40,997 bases of DNA, taken from a virus. The translations under genes and the position numbers were made by a program. The DNA lies in UHGV virus genome UHGV-0384088; one strand, given 5' to 3'. Numbering within the stretch: the stretch's first letter is position 1; every line of letters begins with the position of its first letter. Positions 6,581-33,612 of the stretch are shown in pieces. The notes under the pieces are model-generated. The model was not told the origin of the DNA. It was given only the letters and a program-made list of their open reading frames with translations, and searched no databases.

Positions 6581-7396
6581 TTAATTAGCATCCGAATCTC
6601 TGACGATGACATGATATTTCTTCACTTGTCCATCGCACTGTGTGTATGGGATTTCTCTTGGATATCCATTGTTGGCGTACCACTGCTCTACCATCCCGAT
6701 CACTTCCGGCGCATATTTTCTAACAGTGCCTTGCCACTTCCCTTTGGATTCCCATGTTTCCGTATACATGTCTTCTGACAAATCTAACCTACGAATAATC
6801 TCATTCACAGCTTTGTCTGCTGGTTTGCCGGAGCTCTGAAAGTAAAGTCTTGCCTGCCTTGCGATATGTACCGTATCTACATACTGCTGATCCGCTTCTA
6901 TCGTGATTGGAAGATTTACTCCTGCTTTCTCATAAAGTGATTTTGCGGTCAGGAGCTGGATTTTACTGTTGCATCCTGCTGCTTGGAGCATCGGCGTTAA
7001 AATCTTCACAGCATTGTTGACACTGGCGAGACGTTCGTTGTTTTGCTTCTTCTTTGGCATTTCATAAGAGCCCGTCTTTCTGATAGACGGAATAACATCC
7101 ATCGCAAGCCAGTTTTGAAATTTCTCAGCTACTGGGTTGCTTGCCTTCATTCCAAGACGATAAAACAGTGATTCTGGAATGTAATCATCTTTCCCCACTT
7201 GTGGGGAAAATCCCATTTCTCTACAAAATGAGTTTAGCCTTTCCCATTTCACATAGATTTTCCCATTCTTCTCTTGCGTCCAGCCAAATCCAATGGCAGT
7301 ATCTTCTGCGCTAATGGAAATGCTTCCATCTGGATTCGGCAGTGTTCTTACACTTAAACCAAGTTCCTTATTTTTAAAAATTTTTAATTCGTTCAT
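6581..7396 (-). CDS. Phage antirepressor, Bro-N N-terminal domain + KilA-C/ANT C-terminal domain
   Basis: N-terminus MNELKIFKNKELGLSVRTLPNPDGSISISAEDTAIGFGW is a Bro-N signature; true start taken at MNELKIF (GGAGG RBS at about 7403-7407) rather than the upstream in-frame Met of the ORF track. Confidence 0.75.
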   Translation of the reverse strand: MNELKIFKNKELGLSVRTLPNPDGSISISAEDTAIGFGWTQEKNGKIYVKWERLNSFCREMGFSPQVGKDDYIPESLFYRLGMKASNPVAEKFQNWLAMDVIPSIRKTGSYEMPKKKQNNERLASVNNAVKILTPMLQAAGCNSKIQLLTAKSLYEKAGVNLPITIEADQQYVDTVHIARQARLYFQSSGKPADKAVNEIIRRLDLSEDMYTETWESKGKWQGTVRKYAPEVIGMVEQWYANNGYPREIPYTQCDGQVKKYHVIVRDSDAN

Positions 7397-7407
7397 ATTA
7401 CCTCCTG

Positions 7408-7593
7408 TTATCGTGTTAATAACAACACGATTATTATGATTATCAGAATTCCTATGACGCATCTGTATATGGTGCGTCTTCGATAAATCATTTCAAAAAA
7501 TTCTTTTTCGTCATCGGAAATTTCAAACAACTCCGCAAATTTGTTCCAGTTAATTTTTACCACACCTCTTTCCTTTTGAATCTTTATTGTCAT
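7408..7593 (-). CDS. small protein with C-terminal TM segment (61 aa)
   Basis: ORF track; IGILIIIIIVLLL hydrophobic tail. Confidence 0.3.
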   Translation of the reverse strand: MTIKIQKERGVVKINWNKFAELFEISDDEKEFFEMIYRRRTIYRCVIGILIIIIIVLLLTR

Positions 7594-24055: not shown

Positions 24056-26843
24056 GACTTCGTTCTCCTTTCAGTCTCATCCTCATACTCTCTCGACTCT
24101 CCAGCTCTTTCTGCGTAAATTCCGCCGTAACTCGTGCTGCTTCTCTTCCGTTGTACTCAACTGGAACAACGATTGTGTATGTAGTATTCCGGTTATAAGA
24201 ATAATCACCGGAAAGTTCAGAATCCAAAGCACCTGAAGCTCGCATTCTCATGTCTGTGGATAATGTTGGGATCTCCACAATGTTCTGCGTAGCTTCTGCA
24301 ACCTTTCTGGACATCGACTCAATTCCAAGCGCAAATCCCTCTCCTACATAGGCGCCCAGCCCCGCAAATACTCTTGACGGACTGTGGATTTTTGCTTTTG
24401 CCCTGACTGCAGCATCTGCAGCCGCAGCCATTTGCGCCGCAACTGATCTGATATATCCTAAGGTTGCCGACATACCATCCGCAAAGCCTAACCCTATGTT
24501 GTATCCGCTACTGTATGCGCCGCTTGCACCGGAAGCCAGGGATGATAATACTGCAGATACAGTTTTGGTTGCGACTGCCTGTGTCGGCTGTAGTCCGTTC
24601 TGTACGCCCTCTTTTGCACTGTCCCCAAGTTTCCGTCCAGAGTTTCTCGCTTTTCCTGCGCCGTTGTCAAATGCGCTTACAATAGATTTCACCGCACTTT
24701 TCGCCTTATTACCAAGCGCATCTAGCCCATCATTTACAATGCTTACAGAATCTTTCATGCTGGTAATGGATTTCTGCGCTGTCTTTGCATTCTTAGCAAT
24801 GGACTTCATACTGGAATTTACCGCCAATAGCGCCGCAGCCATTGCAAGTACACCAACACACGCTGCTACCATTGCGACGCCGAATGCTACCACTCCGACT
24901 GTGACACCAAGTACTGCAACACCTACCGCAAGCAATCCAACCGCGAGAACCGTGCATCCAACTCCTGCCACAATCGTACCAGCTCCAAATACCGTCATTG
25001 CAGCACCTAACGCCCCGATAGCTACAGATGCCTGCAATCCATACTCAGCAACAATCGGAAGTACACTTGCCACGATCGCAAGGCCTGCGCTCGCAAGCAA
25101 TACTGCCGCTCCAACAAGTGCCGCAGCCACACCGAATGCAATCAAACCAACAGCTCCTGCTGTAAGGACGGGAGCCACTGCAGCCGCTACGACCATCAAT
25201 CCACCAATTGCTACGATCAGGCCGAACATCACTGCGATTGCAAGCGGTCCTGCATTCGCCAAGGAAATTGCGGACATAGTTAATACGGCGATTCCGGCCG
25301 CTGCCAAAACAACAGCTGCGCCGAATGCAACAAATCCGGCTGCGCCAGAAGATAATGTCGGAGCTACCATTTTTGCAACAATCAAAAGACCTGCAATCGC
25401 CGCCACCATTCCAACTAAAACTGCAACCGCTAAAGGACCCGAGTCCGCTACTGCCTTTGCCCCCTGGGAAAGCAGGAAAAACCCTGCACTAATCAGAGCG
25501 ACACCTGCACCGAGCATCATAAACGCTTTCGCTGATTCCATAGTGCTTTTCACACTTTCTTTGCTCGACACGCCGACTTCTTTCTGCCCTTTGGAAATCC
25601 CAAATAATTTTCCGGCAATTTTGCTGATTCCTTTACCGGCAAGACCGGCAATTGCACTGGTAAATGCACCTACAAATGGAGCAACGCTTTTTGCAATCTT
25701 AAAGCCTTTATATGCAACGATTAGTTTTGGGAGTTCAGTGATCACTCTCGCAATGATATCTGCATGCTCTTCCAAGAATCCTGCAAACGCTTGGAGCGCA
25801 TCCCCAGCTCCTTGAATCGCATCGCGGAACCCGTTCACGCTCTCTGTAGAGCCAAATGCTGGAATAAGTTTTCCAAGTTCTTTTCGGATTGCTCCAAATG
25901 CATCCCCAAAAGCCACAGAAACTTGAGAAGCCTCTCTTTTTAAGATTTTCCAATAGGATCCCAAGCGAATCATTGTTGCTGGAATCCAAGTCTGCAATCT
26001 GGAAAACACGCTTTCTACTTTTCCGTTAAATTGATTGATCGCATCCACAGCCTTACCTTTAACAAAAGAATCGTAAATGGACTGCATTCCGCTTGTCACC
26101 GTTGCTTCAAGGTTTCCCATTGCTCCTTCGAATGTCGTAACTGATTGCGCGGCTTCTCTTGCCATATCTGTCATCCCTATATTGTTCATCGCCTGCCCCA
26201 GAAGATCGGCTGTGATAGCTCCATCTTCCATTGCCTGTTTAAAATCCTCTCCTAAAATCGGATTCAATTTAATCAATTCTTTTCTTAATCCACCGGCAAG
26301 CTGCGGACTCGCATTGACGATCTGGTTCCAATCCTGCGCATGTAAAGCGCCAGATGCCATCGCCTGTGAAAATGCGAGTGCAACACTACTAAACTCCTGT
26401 GCGCCACCACCGAATACAGCAACTGCATTTCCAACGGATTCCGTTAATTTCTCTGCGTCTTTAACCCCATTTGCAGACAGAGATCCAAAGGTTGACATTA
26501 CATCCTGCAAAGAAAAGACTGTTTTATCAGCATAGGTCTTTAACGTTCCTGTTGCACCTGCGATTCTCTGTATTTCATCCTCAGCGTATCCGCTAAACCT
26601 CATAGCCTGTTGGAGTTTCTGCATTGCATCCGATGTGTTGATCGTTTCTTTGGTTAACCCAGAAAGGCTTCCGGACACGACAGATACAGCTTTTTGTCCA
26701 ATTGCCATCATTGCTCCAAAGCCAATCCCACCCATAAGTGTACTTTTTAACTCTTTGGCTGACTTTGTGGCTGCTCCGAAAACAGATTTGAACCCCTTAT
26801 CCTGCGCAGATAATATTGCCTTCACGGAAAAACTTTCTGCCAT
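24048..26843 (-). CDS. Tail tape measure protein
   Basis: 931 aa; helical N-region, long Gly/Ala-rich multi-TM central segment, position after G/GT chaperones. Confidence 0.85.
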   Translation of the reverse strand: MAESFSVKAILSAQDKGFKSVFGAATKSAKELKSTLMGGIGFGAMMAIGQKAVSVVSGSLSGLTKETINTSDAMQKLQQAMRFSGYAEDEIQRIAGATGTLKTYADKTVFSLQDVMSTFGSLSANGVKDAEKLTESVGNAVAVFGGGAQEFSSVALAFSQAMASGALHAQDWNQIVNASPQLAGGLRKELIKLNPILGEDFKQAMEDGAITADLLGQAMNNIGMTDMAREAAQSVTTFEGAMGNLEATVTSGMQSIYDSFVKGKAVDAINQFNGKVESVFSRLQTWIPATMIRLGSYWKILKREASQVSVAFGDAFGAIRKELGKLIPAFGSTESVNGFRDAIQGAGDALQAFAGFLEEHADIIARVITELPKLIVAYKGFKIAKSVAPFVGAFTSAIAGLAGKGISKIAGKLFGISKGQKEVGVSSKESVKSTMESAKAFMMLGAGVALISAGFFLLSQGAKAVADSGPLAVAVLVGMVAAIAGLLIVAKMVAPTLSSGAAGFVAFGAAVVLAAAGIAVLTMSAISLANAGPLAIAVMFGLIVAIGGLMVVAAAVAPVLTAGAVGLIAFGVAAALVGAAVLLASAGLAIVASVLPIVAEYGLQASVAIGALGAAMTVFGAGTIVAGVGCTVLAVGLLAVGVAVLGVTVGVVAFGVAMVAACVGVLAMAAALLAVNSSMKSIAKNAKTAQKSITSMKDSVSIVNDGLDALGNKAKSAVKSIVSAFDNGAGKARNSGRKLGDSAKEGVQNGLQPTQAVATKTVSAVLSSLASGASGAYSSGYNIGLGFADGMSATLGYIRSVAAQMAAAADAAVRAKAKIHSPSRVFAGLGAYVGEGFALGIESMSRKVAEATQNIVEIPTLSTDMRMRASGALDSELSGDYSYNRNTTYTIVVPVEYNGREAARVTAEFTQKELESRESMRMRLKGERSHV

Positions 26844-26847
26844 GCCA

Positions 26848-27162
26848 TCACTCTCCTTTCATCATTCTGCCGATTATGTCCAATCTTTCGTTTTTCTTCT
26901 TGCGATTCTTCACACGATCTACTTCTTTTTCGTAATCAAAAAACTTTCTGAATCTCTGATAAACTGGTTTAGTCTTATTCTTTCCGACCTTTTTCTCTGC
27001 TTTCACAGCAAAATTTAGGAACGCTTGCAGATGATTTCGATAGTCCCTGTCTACTTCTCTTAGCTGCACAGCCTCCATGAGCAGGGTGTATTCTGGAATT
27101 GTCAACCTATCCACTTCTTCAAAGCTCTTAAAGCCAAGATATCGGAAACAATTCAACGCCAT
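26848..27162 (-). CDS. Tail assembly chaperone, GT-type extension (likely expressed by -1 frameshift from upstream G-like gene)
   Basis: Frame is -1 relative to 27186..27611 and stays open back across its 3' end. Confidence 0.45.
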   Translation of the reverse strand: MALNCFRYLGFKSFEEVDRLTIPEYTLLMEAVQLREVDRDYRNHLQAFLNFAVKAEKKVGKNKTKPVYQRFRKFFDYEKEVDRVKNRKKKNERLDIIGRMMKGE

Positions 27163-27185
27163 CTCTCTGTAGGATTCTTCAAAAT

Positions 27186-27611
27186 CTACATCATCAGCTC
27201 TCTCTTCTTCGCTTCTTCCTCTTCCATTCTCTGTTTCTCTTTCTCCACAGCGTCCACGATCTCGTCCGTAGCTTTTTTCGTAGCATTGGCACTCTTCAAG
27301 AAACCCATTACTGTTTCTGTAAGTTCATCAATATCTGTGTCCTCATCGTCGATATACTCATCTAAAAGGCCTCTTGTCACTCTCGGATTCTGCCCTTTAT
27401 TCGCAACATCAAGAATGTTTACCAGCGCATCCGGATCACCATTCACTAAGTTCATAAGCGCATATCGGAATCCTACGTCTTTTTTTACTCCCGGCAATCC
27501 ATCCACAGGCATATTCGTCTGCTTGTTGATCTCTCTTAAAAATCCCATTCCGAATTTAAACTGGTACACCTGTCCGTTAATTGTTAATTCCATCATATTT
27601 TTTACCTCCAT
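27186..27611 (-). CDS. Tail assembly chaperone (gpG-like)
   Basis: 141 aa acidic protein between major tail and tape measure; acidic C-terminus. Confidence 0.55.
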   Translation of the reverse strand: MEVKNMMELTINGQVYQFKFGMGFLREINKQTNMPVDGLPGVKKDVGFRYALMNLVNGDPDALVNILDVANKGQNPRVTRGLLDEYIDDEDTDIDELTETVMGFLKSANATKKATDEIVDAVEKEKQRMEEEEAKKRELMM

Positions 27612-27717
27612 TAAAAGAGAGCGGTCTCGCCGCCCTCTATGTACATGATCTATTCTTTTCCTACTTTTGCCTTTCCTACTTTACCTCTGCCGATTAAGGC
27701 TACATCGTCAGAGGGCA

Positions 27718-28245
27718 TTATTCCCCCTCTTTCACGCTGTCCTTAAACACATAAGCTGCTACTTCCTGCTGCTGTGCAGTTACAGTAACATCCCCTCGTT
27801 TTCCAGAGCCGTTAACACCAAAAGTAAGAGACACCTCTACATTTTCATCTGCCGAGGATATGATCTCAAATTCCGTGAGATATCCCTGGAAATACATGCC
27901 CTTAAACTTATTCGGACCAGGTTCTGCCGGATCCTCAAGGTTTGCTTCCCAGATTTCAAGCAACTCATCCGAATCCATCGCGTCCTCTAACTCGGAGATT
28001 AACTTATCTTTCTTCGCAAGGATAGCAGTGGCCGTGATTTCTGTTTCCGCAGCCCCAGGTGTACGAATCGTTCCATCCTTCGTTGCTGTAGAGTCTGCAT
28101 CCTTGCTTTTTGTTCTTCCATTTTCTGTCGTAAACGCAAGATTTTTCGCAGCCTCTTCTTTGGCTTTTCCTGCAAGTCGGTACAAATAGACAATTTTCTT
28201 GCCAGATACCGCCTCTGCAAATAACTGTAAACCTGTCTTAAACAT
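27718..28245 (-). CDS. Major tail protein
   Basis: 175 aa; position; N-terminus MFKTGLQLFAE carries the same LQLFA motif as scaffold and capsid. Confidence 0.65.
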   Translation of the reverse strand: MFKTGLQLFAEAVSGKKIVYLYRLAGKAKEEAAKNLAFTTENGRTKSKDADSTATKDGTIRTPGAAETEITATAILAKKDKLISELEDAMDSDELLEIWEANLEDPAEPGPNKFKGMYFQGYLTEFEIISSADENVEVSLTFGVNGSGKRGDVTVTAQQQEVAAYVFKDSVKEGE

Positions 28246-28259
28246 GCTTTTTCTCCTCT

Positions 28260-28643
28260 CTAACTAAAACTAAATTCTATTTCCAGCAACCCGTGTAAAA
28301 GAGGCTGCTTTGTTGTTGCATCCGGAAGAATCCTCTGATTTACATTCCGGACATCCCATGCAAAATTTTCGGTATGATCCAGTTTTCTGCATGTGGTTTT
28401 GATCGCCAACAGCATTTTTGATACCGTTCCTCTCTGTCTTGGATTGTTGTGCCAAACATGGATTGTCTGATGGACACTGCCAAACACAGCGGTCTTATTC
28501 GCATCATCGATCAATTGGCTGTCTGCGAGATAAACAAAAGGATACGGCGTACCATCCGGCGGTAAGAAGCCGTCATATACGTCATATCCTGATTTTTTTA
28601 TCTCTGTAAGTAATTTTGTAAATAATTCTTGCTGTGGATCCAT
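28260..28643 (-). CDS. Tail completion / tail terminator-like protein
   Basis: 127 aa; position between HK97 gp10-like and major tail genes. Confidence 0.4.
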   Translation of the reverse strand: MDPQQELFTKLLTEIKKSGYDVYDGFLPPDGTPYPFVYLADSQLIDDANKTAVFGSVHQTIHVWHNNPRQRGTVSKMLLAIKTTCRKLDHTENFAWDVRNVNQRILPDATTKQPLLHGLLEIEFSFS

Positions 28644-28646
28644 ATC

Positions 28647-28985
28647 TCACCTCACAAGCTTTTGCAAATCTTTTTCAAACTGTTTCTTTTGCTCCTCAAA
28701 TGCGGGGTTTAAATAGGGTTGGGCTTCCATGAATCTGGTTCCGAGTTCTACATAAGGCGCATACTCAGCTGTTGGTTCGACAGTGGCGGTCATCCCACCA
28801 TCAGAGATGTCAATACCGATACTTCTTTTCAGTGTTCCAGTATCGACTGGAGCATTCCTCTGCGCTTTCTTTTGCATATCTGCCCCGTTTTTCCGTACAA
28901 CTGTCTGCACAGCGCTCATATCCATCCGCTTCTTCAAACCTTTATTCAGCTTTGCGATTCCTTCGATTTTTAACGTAGCCATCAC
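28647..28985 (-). CDS. HK97 gp10-family head-tail joining protein
   Basis: 112 aa; ...NAPVDTGTLKRSIGID...VEPTAEYAPYVELGTRFMEAQPYLNPAFEE typical of the HK97 gp10 family. Confidence 0.6.
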   Translation of the reverse strand: MMATLKIEGIAKLNKGLKKRMDMSAVQTVVRKNGADMQKKAQRNAPVDTGTLKRSIGIDISDGGMTATVEPTAEYAPYVELGTRFMEAQPYLNPAFEEQKKQFEKDLQKLVR

Positions 28986-29284
28986 TGCACCTCCGACACT
29001 ACAAACACATGCTTTGTTCGCAGTTTTCGTTCAAAATCCACTCTGTACACTTTCATTCCAACTCTGATCCGGTGGAATGTTTCTGCATAATGAGTCTGCA
29101 ATTGGATTATAAGACTGCCCTGTTTAATGCTGCCATAAATCAGGTTCATCGTTTCTGTTCCAGTGTCTGAAACACTTCCATACTTCTTCACTTCCGTCAC
29201 GTGGTCATCTGCGTAATCACCAGTCTCTGGATTGTACGCTCCGTGTTCTGCTGTTTGAAAATATATAGCTTTATCATACCTCAT
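28982..29284 (-). CDS. Head closure / head-tail adaptor protein
   Basis: 100 aa; synteny between gp6-like connector and gp10-like protein. Confidence 0.45.
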   Translation of the reverse strand: MRYDKAIYFQTAEHGAYNPETGDYADDHVTEVKKYGSVSDTGTETMNLIYGSIKQGSLIIQLQTHYAETFHRIRVGMKVYRVDFERKLRTKHVFVVSEVQ

Positions 29285-29607
29285 AGGAATCGCACCCTCC
29301 CACGTTTTGCCCCGTCTACAGAGTCAAGATACGCTTGTATCTCGTCCATATAGGCGGAAAAATCATTTTCATTGTACGAAGTGCTTTCTCCAGCCACACT
29401 GTGGGAAGACATGCCCTCAGAGCCAATGCGGTTAAAACGGATCACTGCCACATCCGTAACGATATGCTGCATACTCGATGGCACTTCCATGCCACCGAGA
29501 AGCAGTTTCAAACGATTTCGCACAGATTCCAGAATCAATAAAAGCTTTTCATCAGAATCCCTATCGGAAACATCAATTCCCAGAAGAATTTTTAAATCAT
29601 CCAGCAT
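29281..29607 (-). CDS. gp6-like head-tail connector (DNA packaging/connector) protein
   Basis: 108 aa; MLDDLKILLGIDVSDRDSDEKLLLILESVRNRLKLLLG resembles Phage_connect_1 N-terminus. Confidence 0.55.
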   Translation of the reverse strand: MLDDLKILLGIDVSDRDSDEKLLLILESVRNRLKLLLGGMEVPSSMQHIVTDVAVIRFNRIGSEGMSSHSVAGESTSYNENDFSAYMDEIQAYLDSVDGAKRGRVRFL

Positions 29608-29621
29608 TCAATTTCAACTCC

Positions 29622-30062
29622 TTACGAATTCACCATAACACCAGCAGTTTTTAACGCTGCTAAAGCGGCATTTAATTTTGCCTTAGTCTCGTTAGCAAGT
29701 GCCACTACTTTATTAAATTCTGCCTGTGTTGGATTTGTTGCTGCTGCGTTTGTTGCATCTGCTGCTGAGACATTATCTACTTTCGTAGCCTGTTTTACAC
29801 CACCAATGCTTGTAGATGCCGCAGGAAGAACGTATTTATTCGCCTGTTCTGCAATTCCGTCCAGTTTCGCCTTGTCCTCTTTAGACATCAAACCATCTTT
29901 AGATCCAGCAACTGCTTTAACAAGTTTACCCTCAATCCCGCTGATTTTTGTATCCTGCTGTGTGTTTTTTGTGTCATTTGATGCAACCCCGGACTCAATG
30001 TTGTTCATTGCCTCTTGTGTAATTACTTCATCATTGTTCCATGTCTTTTTCGAATAAGCCAT
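29622..30062 (-). CDS. hypothetical structural protein (146 aa), possible head decoration/fibre
   Basis: Between capsid and connector genes; Ala/Lys-rich, low complexity. Confidence 0.4.
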   Translation of the reverse strand: MAYSKKTWNNDEVITQEAMNNIESGVASNDTKNTQQDTKISGIEGKLVKAVAGSKDGLMSKEDKAKLDGIAEQANKYVLPAASTSIGGVKQATKVDNVSAADATNAAATNPTQAEFNKVVALANETKAKLNAALAALKTAGVMVNS

Positions 30063-30148
30063 TTTTACTCACATCCTTTATTCTGATTTTCCAATTTTCG
30101 CCTTACCGATTTTCCCCCTGCCTACCAAGGCGAGGTCTTCAGGGGGTG

Positions 30149-31075
30149 CTATTCCCCCACTGTCACTTTTACTACCGCCTTTTTATTATCGTTCGGAATA
30201 AATTCTCCAGCCTTACCAGCTCCCTGCAAAGCTACACCGTCGAAATCCTCGGATTCGATTGTTCTCGCTGTGTTAATTCCGGTAAATGCTTTTGCAACTC
30301 CGGCAATATATGCATAGGCGCATTCTTTAGACTGGAATAATTCATCCGGAATCTCCTCTACAAGGAATCCCTTGAACTTCACAACCTCATTGCCATCAAT
30401 GTTTACAGTGGAGTTTTTAGCAGCCGTATTCAAAGGATGATCCACGACGGCATTGTACAGATCGGAACAAACCTTAATTTTTTTCGTTCCAACTGCTTCG
30501 ATGTTATTAAAATACTTAGACAGCTCATTAAACAGCTTTAATACATTGTCTGCCGTATAATCTGTGGCTTTCAAAGACTTTCCGGCAGAATGGGAAATAA
30601 AATTTCCGTGCTGTTTGTTAAACTGCTTTGTCTTAGCCCTCGCCTGCAGTTCCAAGCGATCTGCTACCGCAACGTCAAAATCATTATTCACGGTGTGTCG
30701 GTCAATCCCCTCGTGGTAATTCCATCCCCAAGAGTAATTAACCGGCGTGTTCGCGTAGATAATCTCTTTTCTCTCCCCGAAACGGCTAGAGTTCCCTGTT
30801 CCCGTTCCAAACGCTTTCGTAGCTGTTTTATCGTACCCAGTTCCAACCACAACCGGAATGTCTGATGTTTTTACATAAAAGGCTGTTTCATTTTCTCTGA
30901 CTCCATCCAGTACCTCAAGTTCGCCGACGAAAAAATCCGCGAAATAAGACATCTTTTTAAATACTACCTCTAAAAGGCTTTTAAACTCAAGCTGGTAGCT
31001 TCTTACCGGCATATCATTGTTGTCTCCTGCCGCAAATAACTGTAACATCATAAATTCTTTATTCTTCATCTTCAC
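30149..31075 (-). CDS. Major capsid protein
   Basis: 308 aa immediately downstream of scaffold; N-terminal propeptide-like MKMKNKEFMMLQLFA. Confidence 0.65.
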   Translation of the reverse strand: MKMKNKEFMMLQLFAAGDNNDMPVRSYQLEFKSLLEVVFKKMSYFADFFVGELEVLDGVRENETAFYVKTSDIPVVVGTGYDKTATKAFGTGTGNSSRFGERKEIIYANTPVNYSWGWNYHEGIDRHTVNNDFDVAVADRLELQARAKTKQFNKQHGNFISHSAGKSLKATDYTADNVLKLFNELSKYFNNIEAVGTKKIKVCSDLYNAVVDHPLNTAAKNSTVNIDGNEVVKFKGFLVEEIPDELFQSKECAYAYIAGVAKAFTGINTARTIESEDFDGVALQGAGKAGEFIPNDNKKAVVKVTVGE

Positions 31076-31083
31076 ATTCTCCT

Positions 31084-31659
31084 TTATTTATACTTTGCAA
31101 GCCTCTTTTCGAATTCAGACAACTGGCTTCCTGAGTTCGTCATGGTTTTTGGTGTAGTTCCGGTTGCTCTGGCGATCTCGGCTTTCTTAAGCTGGTATTC
31201 CACGATTTTTACAAGCTTATCAATTTTTGCATTCGTATCATCAGCGTCATTCCCTACAACAAAATCAAGAACATCCTGCGTTGCTTCAATTCCTTTTTCT
31301 GCAAGAATGCCTGTGGCGCTTCTGCTAAGCTCAACCTTTGCAGCCTTCTGCTTCAGTTTTTCATTCTCTTTTTGCAACTTCTCGATCTCGTAATTCTGTT
31401 TCTGCTCAGCATTCATTTTTGCAAGCTTTTCTGCCTCTTCCTTAGCACTCTTTACCGCCTGTTCCTGCTCAGTTTTCCATTTTGCGAATCTTTTGTTTAC
31501 AATCGCATCCACATCCTTGTCTGTGTACTTTTTTTCTTCCCCGCTATCATCAGATGTGTTTTCCGGATTAACACTATCTTTCACCGCATCAGGTTCTGCT
31601 GTATGATCTACGGTTTCTTCTGCAAATAACTGCAGCATTCTAAACATCCTGCTCTTCAT
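31084..31659 (-). CDS. Scaffolding protein
   Basis: 191 aa, highly charged coiled coil (EEAEKLAKMNAEQKQNYEIEKLQKENEKLKQKAAK); N-terminus MKSRMFRMLQLFAEE. Confidence 0.65.
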   Translation of the reverse strand: MKSRMFRMLQLFAEETVDHTAEPDAVKDSVNPENTSDDSGEEKKYTDKDVDAIVNKRFAKWKTEQEQAVKSAKEEAEKLAKMNAEQKQNYEIEKLQKENEKLKQKAAKVELSRSATGILAEKGIEATQDVLDFVVGNDADDTNAKIDKLVKIVEYQLKKAEIARATGTTPKTMTNSGSQLSEFEKRLAKYK

Positions 31660-31741
31660 TTTCTTTACCTCCTAAAAGTTTAATGACATTCTTCATGGTC
31701 CTTTCCCCTAGCTTTTTACGCCTTCAAGACTTGGGCGCGAA

Positions 31742-32029
31742 TTACATAATTGCTACATAATCCGGAAACTCATCGGCAATCGAGCGAATGCCAACGAAAA
31801 AGGAATCCACCAGAGTTTTTGATTTCTCTGACAGATTCCTGTATTCTATCTCAGCCTTTCCGGGAGATATTCTGTATTCTATTTCATCATCCGTTAAGTC
31901 ATCAATCGACTGAATCAGCGTCTGTGTAAGTGCTGTCACAGCTGCACACACAATATCTTTTCCCGGCTCCGCATACCCGGCGTGTCCAGAGATTTTAATT
32001 CGCTCTGGTCGAATTCTCACCTCAATCAA
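31742..32029 (-). CDS. prp: Prp-family cysteine protease (ribosomal-processing cysteine protease Prp/DUF464 homolog)
   Basis: 95 aa; ISGHAGYAEPGKDIVCAAVTAL closely parallels the Prp His-Cys dyad region (GHA....G.DIVCAxV); located in head module. Confidence 0.75.
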   Translation of the reverse strand: MIEVRIRPERIKISGHAGYAEPGKDIVCAAVTALTQTLIQSIDDLTDDEIEYRISPGKAEIEYRNLSEKSKTLVDSFFVGIRSIADEFPDYVAIM

Positions 32030-32326: not shown

Positions 32327-33612
32327 AATATATCCCCATTCTCCTTTCTTTCCTCTTCGCTTAATTCGCGAGTTGTCTTATCCTTCAGTCTGCCGTCTTC
32401 TCCCCATGTATAGTCATGCGCGTGTTCCCCATGATTTCCATAAGGATGCTGCTTAGGATTCCCGTGTGCGGTTGTATGGATATCTTTAAATTTTAATTTC
32501 GACTCTCCATAAAAAGCTCTTACATCTACTTTCCCGTCTTTTCCGATATGGTCTATTACCGCTCCTGCCTCTGCCATTTTAGGCGTTCCAGAATGTCCGC
32601 TGACGGTTTTATCTGCTTTTATTATACCAAACGTAGATTTCTTTTCAACCCTCTTCTTCCAAGTTTCAAAATCCATCCCGTGCTCAGAATACCCGTCCAG
32701 CCATTCATCATACTCTTTATCATCCATATATGCTGCTGTACTGCACCGGCAACGTGGATGCATTGGATGCGCATTCTCTCCTGGCATCATCTTCGATACC
32801 TTAAAATGCTTTCCATCTAAAGCCCGGCAGATCGGGCAGGCGGTAGGTTCTGCGATAAACTCATACTCATCAAATCCATTGCGTACATAAGACTGTTTCT
32901 GCGCTTCTGCCTGCACCCTTGACAGTTCCGTTATCATCAGTCGCTCTGCATTTTCCCGGCTTACTCCAAACAGTTTGGTAAGGTGTCTTGCCAGTGTTCT
33001 TGGATTCTTACCCTGTATCAAACCAGTCTGTAATAGTTTCGACAATTCAGCTTTCAGCATATCTTGATACATCCAAATACGGTCTGAGTATCTCGCATTA
33101 TGGAAAGAAGCGTTCACGATCGAATGTGCCATCTTCGCATTGTTCTGGATGGATTTTCCAAGGATTCCTGCCTGCCGTTCAAATTCTTCCAGTGTTTTCT
33201 CCGTCAGGATCTGGTCAAAATACTTCTGAAGCTCATCAAAACCACCGACAAGATGCATTCCGATATTCGCTTTAAGCATTTCCAATCGATTAATTTTCAT
33301 TGCTGCGTTATAGAGCCGCATTTCCTCATTGGCTTCCTTAGAGAAATTCTTATCCCTTACATACTGTGCTGCTTTTCGACTGTATGCATCAATATCCATT
33401 TTAGATACCCGCTTTTTTGCCTCTGCGATTGTGATCCCTTCTGCTTTTGCATAACGTGTGTAAAATCCATGAATCTCTTTCTGGATTTCATCCATCATAT
33501 TCACATAGATCTTCTCAATCTCTTTCGCGTATTCAGCTTCGTCCTTGATATTCTTCTTCCTCTGTTCTTCTTCCCTATTCTTCCAGTACGTCCTGCTGCT
33601 CATCCGCCGCAC
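32323..33612 (-). CDS. Minor head protein (SPP1 gp7 / Mu F-like head morphogenesis protein) with about 130-aa His-rich C-terminal extension
   Basis: 429 aa; conserved MuF C-terminal motif HPMHPRCRCS; extra C-terminal region GIIKADKTVSGHSG...HGNPKQHPYGNHGEHAHDYTWGEDG beyond the usual domain end. Confidence 0.7.
   Translation of the reverse strand: MRRMSSRTYWKNREEEQRKKNIKDEAEYAKEIEKIYVNMMDEIQKEIHGFYTRYAKAEGITIAEAKKRVSKMDIDAYSRKAAQYVRDKNFSKEANEEMRLYNAAMKINRLEMLKANIGMHLVGGFDELQKYFDQILTEKTLEEFERQAGILGKSIQNNAKMAHSIVNASFHNARYSDRIWMYQDMLKAELSKLLQTGLIQGKNPRTLARHLTKLFGVSRENAERLMITELSRVQAEAQKQSYVRNGFDEYEFIAEPTACPICRALDGKHFKVSKMMPGENAHPMHPRCRCSTAAYMDDKEYDEWLDGYSEHGMDFETWKKRVEKKSTFGIIKADKTVSGHSGTPKMAEAGAVIDHIGKDGKVDVRAFYGESKLKFKDIHTTAHGNPKQHPYGNHGEHAHDYTWGEDGRLKDKTTRELSEEERKENGDIL

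Follow-up and report, generated by a model that had tools for sequence, protein, structure and literature searches.

What does a gene of the Prp family, whose chromosomal members process ribosomal protein L27 in Firmicutes, do in the head operon of a phage whose own virion proteins begin with an L27-like extension? We addressed this question for the virus genome UHGV-0384088, here called the window, a stretch of 40,997 nucleotides that represents a temperate siphophage with its late morphogenesis operon wholly on the minus strand, according to profile and PHROG assignments. A preliminary description of the letters alone had noticed a Prp-like open reading frame (ORF) and an LQLFA-bearing extension on the scaffold, capsid, and major tail proteins; our analysis confirms that observation and supports its interpretation with corrections. 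Computation establishes the presence of the gene and of the tags, the conservation of the tags, and the way in which they co-vary with the enzyme. We give a probability of about 0.72 to the reading that the phage Prp cuts the bond between Phe and Ala (written F'A below, with an apostrophe for the cut) in the propeptides of scaffold, capsid, and tail tube, as a maturation of virion proteins.

The Prp-family gene and the tagged proteins

The genes and predicted propeptides concerned are as follows.

31742-32029, minus strand: Prp-family ORF, 95 amino acids (aa), TTG start; PF04327, phrog_4478
31084-31659, minus strand: head scaffolding protein, DUF4355, 191 aa; PF14265 (E = 2e-30), phrog_172 (E = 5e-40)
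30149-31075, minus strand: major capsid protein, 308 aa from GTG or 306 from ATG; phrog_840 "major head protein" (E = 9e-116)
27718-28245, minus strand: major tail (tube) protein, TP901-1 family, 175 aa; PF06199 (E = 3e-16), phrog_238 (E = 2e-51)
31624-31659, minus strand: scaffold propeptide MKSRMFRMLQLF, 12 aa; predicted cut before Ala13 (codon 31621-31623), mature AEETV..
31034-31075, minus strand: capsid propeptide (V/M)KMKNKEFMMLQLF, 14 aa, or 12 from ATG; predicted cut before Ala (codon 31031-31033), mature AAGDN..
28219-28245, minus strand: tail-tube propeptide MFKTGLQLF, 9 aa; predicted cut before Ala10 (codon 28216-28218), mature AEAVSGKK..

Sequence and predicted structure both place the 95-aa ORF firmly in the Prp family (PF04327, MEROPS C108), with its catalytic dyad intact. 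The profile search that the preliminary description had suggested gave a full-length match to PF04327 (81.3 bits against a gathering score of 27, residues 1 to 92 on profile positions 1 to 89/90), and the ORF also matches phrog_4478, "peptidase" (E = 2e-29). Its translation includes SGHAGYAEPGKDIVCAAVTAL, the block in which the dyad had been placed, with exact coordinates and sequence. In an alignment to the solved Prps of Streptococcus mutans, Streptococcus pneumoniae, and Staphylococcus aureus (4PEO/7KLD, 2G0I, 2IDL), His16 and Cys28 fall on the catalytic His22 and Cys34 of the S. aureus enzyme (4PEO/7KLD), and Gly23 and Asp25 fall on Gly29 and Asp31, the residues that hold the P3 Gln of the substrate there (PMC9405229). 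The L2 loop, G15 to D25, counts 11 residues, as does G21 to D31 in S. aureus Prp, and the essential Ser38 of that enzyme corresponds to Thr32. The phage proteins form a large, full-length family with an invariant G-H-A..G-x-D-I-V-C-A motif; G15, H16, G23, and C28 are invariant across them and S. aureus Prp in a family alignment whose S. aureus sequence is verified over the part that the alignment to 4PEO/7KLD covers, the N-terminal ~20 residues being less certain; the dyad assignment itself rests on the alignment to 4PEO/7KLD.

An AlphaFold2 model of the phage protein (predicted local distance difference test score, 89.1) shows the b-b-a-b-b-a-b fold (element order E-E-H-E-E-H-E), and all 14 of its 14 Foldseek matches in the PDB at E ≤ 1e-3 are Prp structures (2G0I/J, 2IDL, 7KLD, 7JVS, 1S12, and 4PEO; template modeling scores of 0.74 to 0.90). 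The protein is acidic (isoelectric point, 4.66), as Firmicute Prps are, and ~30% identical to the solved Prps; for a protein of only 95 aa, identities between phage Prps (28 to 37%) are as low as those between phage and cellular ones. The ribosome-binding site (RBS) GGAGGTGATGCGAT lies ahead of its TTG start.

In the six-frame translation of the window, LQLFA occurs exactly three times, each time at the N terminus of the scaffold (MKSRMFRMLQLFAEE), the major capsid protein ((GTG)KMKNKEFMMLQLFAAG), or the major tail protein (MFKTGLQLFAEA), at residues 9 to 13, 11 to 15, and 6 to 10, respectively. The mean count of the motif in 300 shuffles of the window was 0.057 (maximum, 1). All three sites lie 11 to 14 residues behind a stop codon, and all four genes have a GGAGG-type Shine-Dalgarno sequence 4 to 10 nucleotides (nt) before the start that includes the motif in the ORF, although for the capsid the start may be not the GTG but the ATG that follows two codons later. 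The 280 sites with N-terminal LQLFA in related loci use 73 different 15-nt encodings, and it is therefore the peptide that is conserved, not a DNA or RNA element.

Prp cleavage lies between F and A (PMC5744158, PMC9405229), and the bar that the preliminary description had set after the Ala (LQLFA'EE) should therefore move back by one residue. For L27, the published consensus reads MLxx(D/N)LQ(F/L)F'A(S/H)KK, with a small P1' residue that is Ala in all entries of Table 2 but one, which has Ser (PMC9405229). The three window tags all have Leu at P4, Gln at P3, Phe at P1, and a small P1' residue, within the first ~10 to 15 residues, as expected of L27-type sites. Chromosomal prp-rpmA pairs in our genome scan have MIKFSLQLF'AHKKG (Saccharofermentans) and MFKMNLQLF'AHKKG, and the pentapeptide of the window equals this Clostridia L27 site letter for letter, so the proposed mimicry of the Firmicutes L27 pro-sequence stands. 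Further out, P6 and P5 are Arg and Met in the scaffold tag, Met and Met in the capsid tag, and Thr and Gly in the tail tag, where relatives mostly have M/L/F followed by N/D/G. By the P4 to P1' core, scaffold, capsid, and tail tube protein are predicted Prp substrates. With the chromosomal arrangement, rplU-prp-rpmA, the window shares protein family, dyad, loop length, predicted fold, and the motif LQ(L/F)F'A; it differs in that the gene sits in a phage late operon, that the presumed substrates are virion proteins, and that P2' is acidic or small where L27 sites are basic (AHKK/ASKK).

As far as alignments can tell, the tag of the tail protein is an add-on that ends exactly where tagless homologs begin. 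The initiator Met of tagless tail proteins (MSVIKGKRIIYLYR and MGAIRGSRIIYLYR) aligns with the P1' Ala of tagged ones, and TIGR02126, the model for TP901-1 major tail proteins, which scores 88 bits (cut-off, 37), has its position 1 at residue 10 of the window protein, the P1' Ala. Among proteins in the PDB, the window tail protein matches the tail tube protein of Brochothrix phage NF5 (9M7C, E = 1e-39) and gp53 of the staphylococcal phage 80alpha (6V8I, E = 3e-19); the gene of the former, the closest solved homolog (9M7C/9M8O), starts MAEAKKG, to be compared with the predicted mature AEAVSG of the window. On the capsid, the phrog_840 match begins at residue 18, right behind the tag, and the capsid has no Pfam or PDB sequence match.

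Two groups of relatives carry unusual tail-protein tags. In five loci (L043, L054, L064, L075, and L079) the tag MNKLQMF'A is followed by a polar/acidic linker of ~30 residues and then by the conserved body, so propeptide and mature core are separable. In another group (L212-L223, L233, and L235) P1 is not Phe (MRRFDLQLC'AAPE, MRRINLQLH'AEAV), while Prp and a tagged scaffold are kept; these Cys and His tags may be decaying or uncleavable. The window also has an internal LQAFA (GDALQAFAGFLEE; 25782-25796, minus strand) at residue ~354 of the tape measure protein (gene 24048-26843), kept as ALQ[A/T]FAGFL in many relatives, with ELQEFAEDTIY at residue ~97 in others. It could be an internal Prp site, implying tape measure processing, or merely a conserved helical motif.

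Spread of the gene and the tags among phages

A tblastn search over 50,697 phage records located the Prp gene in the cultured phages Dorea DO134P1, Acutalibacter Fontainebleau, Brochothrix BL3, Lactococcus garvieae PLgT-1, and Latilactobacillus TMW 1.1365 P3 and 1.1447 P1. Their Prps are 28 to 65% identical to that of the window and likewise sited in the head module, with the difference that in BL3-type phages the gene precedes that of the MuF-like minor head protein and in the window lies behind it. BL3 (NLQLFA, NLQKFA, DLQKFA) and the Latilactobacillus phage have tags on scaffold, capsid, and tail protein, and PLgT-1 has them on scaffold and capsid. As a group, these phages tag scaffold and capsid and often the tail protein as well; their Prps bear no label beyond "peptidase," "ribosomal protein," "gp6," or hypothetical. 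A Prp relative is present on at least 592 IMG/VR contigs, and at 90% identity there are ~994 Prp protein clusters, some labeled "cysteine protease" or "YsxB-like protein" of Caudoviricetes. The arrangement, as read from these gene neighborhoods, is common in gut and food-associated Firmicutes phages, poorly annotated, and apparently uncharacterized. The preliminary description had called a phage-borne Prp and a processed tail tube less explored; this is accurate insofar as we found no published description of a phage-encoded Prp in the full-text literature open to searching, and too strong insofar as phage Prps are common and labeled in databases and the motif on the major tail protein of the staphylococcal phage phi13 has already been remarked (PMC5744158).

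The tag census covered 170 Prp loci after dereplication, drawn from two scans of IMG/VR, from the cultured phages, and from prophages of Faecalicatena, Merdisoma, Diplocloster, Dubosiella, Enterococcus, and others; tags were classed as strict (LQxF[ASG]) or, counted apart, relaxed.

Scaffold, found in 142 of the 170 loci: strict 108, relaxed 25, none 9 (mostly ORF-start artefacts)
Capsid, found in 137: strict 117, relaxed 5, none 15
Tail protein, found in 115: strict 91, relaxed 3, none 21

Strict and relaxed tags together are present on 133/142 scaffolds, 122/137 capsids, and 94/115 tail proteins. Counted without dereplication, a strict tag occurs in 362 of 457 scaffold, capsid, and tail-protein ORFs versus 13 of 4101 other ORFs (0.3%). 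The tag logo reads K-(M/L/F)-(N/D/G)-L-Q-x-F'A, with E/D or A at P2', and tags are kept across nonhomologous capsid types (293 aa and 387 aa). When we sampled through the tail protein instead, taking the 80 closest relatives of a tagless homolog, the head module was covered in 66, and all 66 have Prp and a tagged scaffold.

The enzyme and its tags also vary together. Of the first 170 loci, Fontainebleau alone has tags with Asp at P1'; the Prp clade around that phage (L002 and L278-L287, 11 loci; 70 to 100% identical mutually, 37% to the window Prp) has an active-site loop of 14 residues that ends in Asn in place of Asp. Every one of the 23 tags in this clade reads NLQLF'D, be it on the scaffold, on the capsid, or on the tail protein of those loci that have one; the clade is a natural specificity variant. 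The S. aureus Prp complex imposes a tight size limit at P1' (PMC9405229). A concerted switch to F'D together with an altered enzyme loop is what enzyme-substrate co-evolution predicts, and it points to the phage enzyme as the cognate protease; this co-variation, the strongest argument, together with operon position and co-inheritance suggests that the phage Prp is the protease to which the tags belong.

Relatives without the gene are differently tagged. NF5 has a tag on the scaffold only (LNIQYF'AEPGG), Enterococcus B1578 on scaffold and capsid, and Streptococcus thermophilus 9871 has a degenerate scaffold tag, NLQLS'A. A tail-protein tag is present in 0/4 Prp-less relatives checked versus 94/115 Prp-bearing loci, an anecdotal contrast that is in keeping with, and fits, the idea that a phage's own enzyme accompanies a larger substrate load. 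Two strategies coexist in one host genus, with BL3 combining its own Prp with three tags and NF5 a scaffold tag with no Prp.

Which protease would cut the tags

Among the closest known systems is 80alpha, whose capsid (gp47) and scaffold (gp46) tags have been shown experimentally to be cut by host Prp (PMC5744158), just as the preliminary description had stated. Both phages have the gene order portal, MuF, small ORF, DUF4355 scaffold, capsid, and TP901-1-type tail protein (BLASTP identities of 33% for scaffold gp46, 35% for tail protein gp53, 29% for MuF, and 26% for portal), tags of like kind (..NLQFF'A and ..NLQHF'A in 80alpha), and no dedicated prohead protease. They differ in that 80alpha lacks a prp gene, having a 56-aa ORF in its slot and relying on the essential host Prp, and in that its major tail protein is untagged (MANMKNSND..), whereas the window adds its own Prp and a tail-tube tag. 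The window is, in other words, a variant of a known Prp-processing system, an 80alpha head/tail module with its own Prp and a tagged tail tube, and not categorically new.

Classical prohead proteases (HK97 gp4/S78-U35, ClpP-like S14, S49, and T4 gp21) are packaged in the prohead, where they degrade scaffold or delta domains; they occupy the same niche, phage-encoded proteolysis of head proteins, with a fold and chemistry unrelated to Prp, and we know of none that processes a tail-tube protein. The absence of such an enzyme from the window, as had been proposed, is borne out by Pfam and PHROG searches: no S78/U35, S14, S49, or S77 protease is present in the fully enumerated head module, the gene run 24048-30062 leaves no gap big enough for one, and the sole protease family among ORFs of ≥110 aa across the window is the ImmA/IrrE M78 domain of the lysogeny module. 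The module is of the 80alpha/SPP1 type (SPP1-type portal, MuF, separate DUF4355 scaffold, and capsid, by PF05133, PF04233, PF14265, phrog_840, and BLASTP to 80alpha). Modules of this type normally lack a prohead protease, so its absence is normal here and not, as had been implied, a consequence of having Prp. Another phage parallel is the protease of pneumococcal phage Cp-1, the other member of MEROPS clan CR, in a different family; it too is a phage-encoded clan-CR cysteine protease that trims an N-terminal extension of the major capsid protein, in this case on a podovirus and by ~40 residues, a likeness taken from the statement of a review (PMC9405229).

How might the phage enzyme act? From the evidence above we infer that cleavage takes place, that its agent is the phage and not the host enzyme, and what purpose it has. 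Prp would be co-expressed with its substrates from the late operon and would bind their tags; by analogy with S. aureus Prp, P1 Phe would lie on the catalytic His, P3 Gln would be held by the Gly and Asp of the loop, and P1' would need to be small. Cutting at F'A would then leave mature proteins that begin with Ala. Our best guess at the purpose is that the tags hold self-assembling proteins assembly-incompetent or chaperoned until processing. A phage-borne enzyme might supply capacity, as some 800 or more cuts per virion would be required if copy numbers resemble those of 80alpha (415 capsid and 130 to 320 scaffold proteins [PMC5744158]) and ~200 tube subunits are added, an estimate from the 931-aa tape measure; it might also free the module from the specificity of the host Prp.

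Several observations weigh against this reading. Cleavage of scaffold and capsid is dispensable for the viability of 80alpha, which requires an intact scaffold N terminus instead (PMC5744158), so the cut may matter less than the term "maturation step" implies. We found no cleavage data for any phage-borne Prp in the searchable literature, with key papers of 2015 and 2017 out of reach. The best NCBIfam Prp equivalog score of the phage protein is 47.5 bits against a cut-off of 171, and it stays below all equivalog cut-offs; together with its place between MuF and scaffold, and not between rplU and rpmA, this indicates that it is not the ribosomal ortholog. (As a discriminator between phage and chromosomal Prps we rejected these cut-offs as uninformative, a partial chromosomal control, L196, also falling below them.) Unlike typical L27 sites, the window tags have neither N/D at P5 nor L at P6. 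The F'D co-variation comes from one clade, hence one event, and that clade is not the window's. Three loci (L028, with Prp at 7225-7512, L031, and L033) have a portal-MuF-79-aa ORF-Prp block 86% identical to that of the window and, behind Prp, inserted ORFs followed by a different, untagged scaffold/capsid/tail set; Prp can therefore persist without obvious substrates. Finally, the LQLF'A of the window is identical to Clostridia L27 sites, so host Prp could cut the window tags unaided.

The last two points bear directly on the strongest alternative, in which the host chromosomal Prp cuts the tags and the phage copy is redundant, boosts capacity, or serves another end, for example, host L27 and ribosome maturation in infection or in lysogens. 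The Prp-less phages are on its side as well, 80alpha, NF5, and B1578 keeping a tagged scaffold, alone or together with a tagged capsid, and 9871 keeping its degenerate tag. It accounts poorly, however, for a gene that lies inside the late head operon directly upstream of its putative substrates and recurs in every one of the 66 relatives sampled, for F'D tags that track the phage enzyme and not the conserved L27 site, and for the confinement of tail tags to Prp-bearing loci in the comparison made. We consider this explanation unlikely; for the window itself, host Prp is a plausible alternative or additional protease.

A second alternative, which we regard as distinctly improbable, is that the tags, above all that of the tail tube, are retained in part or wholly as chaperone- or Prp-binding, folding, or regulatory peptides, with Prp mainly a binding or chaperone partner. 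The requirement of 80alpha for its scaffold N terminus and not for the cut (PMC5744158) agrees with this idea, as do tail-protein tags with Cys or His at P1, which are perhaps uncleavable yet kept; the strong conservation of the catalytic dyad and of the P1, P1', and P3 determinants argues against it, as do the tagless homologs, which begin exactly at P1' as if the mature form were functional. A chance or annotation artefact, with the motif in an untranslated leader or the ORF a decayed host-derived pseudogene, has only the unusual TTG and GTG start codons to recommend it and is refuted by the three motifs observed against 0.057 expected, the RBSs before motif-including starts, the 73 synonymous encodings, and the large full-length family with its invariant motif.

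Cleavage of the three propeptides by the phage Prp is the reading that we prefer. A bolder version of it, which we hold only tentatively and think rather doubtful, is that Prp and L27-type tags constitute a widespread, self-contained maturation cassette of Firmicutes siphophages, in which one tiny protease would license both head assembly and tail-tube polymerization, with enzyme and tags co-evolving and independent of host Prp.

Operon context and implications

The remaining genes of the late operon, in the order of their transcription, are the following.

36178-36759, minus strand: TerS; Pfam/PHROG matches
34935-36200, minus strand: TerL; Pfam/PHROG matches
33575-34933, minus strand: SPP1-type portal; PF05133
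32323-33612, minus strand: MuF-like minor head protein; PF04233
32087-32326, minus strand: 79-aa small ORF between MuF and Prp; phrog_15041 only
29622-30062, minus strand: head fiber; context gene, profile/PHROG
29281-29607, minus strand: connector; context gene, profile/PHROG
28982-29284, minus strand: 100-aa ORF; context gene
28647-28985, minus strand: HK97-gp10-like protein; context gene, profile/PHROG
28260-28643, minus strand: tail terminator; context gene, profile/PHROG
27186-27611 and 26848-27162, minus strand: two ORFs in chaperone position; position in module
24048-26843, minus strand: tape measure, 931 aa; context gene, profile/PHROG

The 79-aa ORF has no Pfam or NCBIfam match; it directly precedes Prp, and synteny shows that close relatives inherit the two genes together. 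A small ORF fills the same slot in 80alpha (gp45), BL3 (gp5), PLgT-1 (Orf28), and Fontainebleau, and these sequences are not visibly related.

Elsewhere the window encodes a serine integrase, an HTH (helix-turn-helix)/ImmA pair, a holin, an endolysin, an anti-repressor, a DnaD-like loader, RusA, and a methyltransferase, and it is therefore a near-complete prophage. Two regions, 8700-13794 (plus strand) and 18749-20155 (minus strand), hold the lysogeny block (HTH repressor, ImmA/IrrE M78 peptidase, DUF6978, two PHROG-unknown proteins, and the large serine integrase) and a tail-region protein with a Listeria-Bacteroides repeat (Flg_new). The nearest genome match of the prophage is Faecalicatena contorta (69% identity), and the host is probably a member of the Lachnospiraceae.

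Between the capsid stop and the head-fiber start lies an 84-bp GC-rich stretch (30075-30158) that has 87 to 89% identity to a stretch directly following the major-tail gene of six Ruminococcus gnavus phages; RNA structure in the intergenic region 30060-30165 was not significant (z = -1.2). The stretch may be a mobile regulatory or terminator element that follows highly expressed structural genes. The R. gnavus phages were dropped as a control, having an unrelated HK97-protease head module and sharing only the head fiber and the intergenic element.

To our knowledge, Prp-dependent trimming of phage proteins is known from one system, 80alpha, in which the enzyme belongs to the host and is essential and hard to manipulate. 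Escherichia coli is without Prp (PMC9405229, Table 2), and a phage with its own Prp and three tagged substrates is a clean system that could be reconstituted there. Such a system would test what the tags do, whether proteolysis gates tail-tube assembly, and how Prp specificity is encoded, a question for which the natural F'A and F'D clades are ready material. For annotation, "phage Prp-like maturation protease" is preferable to "ribosomal protein" or "hypothetical," and F'A is where predictions should set the mature N terminus for many scaffolds, capsids, and tail proteins. Efforts are under way to target Prp with narrow-spectrum antibiotics, which makes the abundant prophage Prp paralogs in gut Firmicutes relevant as potential bypass or resistance reservoirs. 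Were the cassette interpretation true, we would know of no earlier C108 protease of viral origin whose role had been demonstrated and of no earlier siphophage in which a dedicated protease matures the tail-tube protein, and the system would offer a handle on why Prp substrates, L27 included, are made as precursors.

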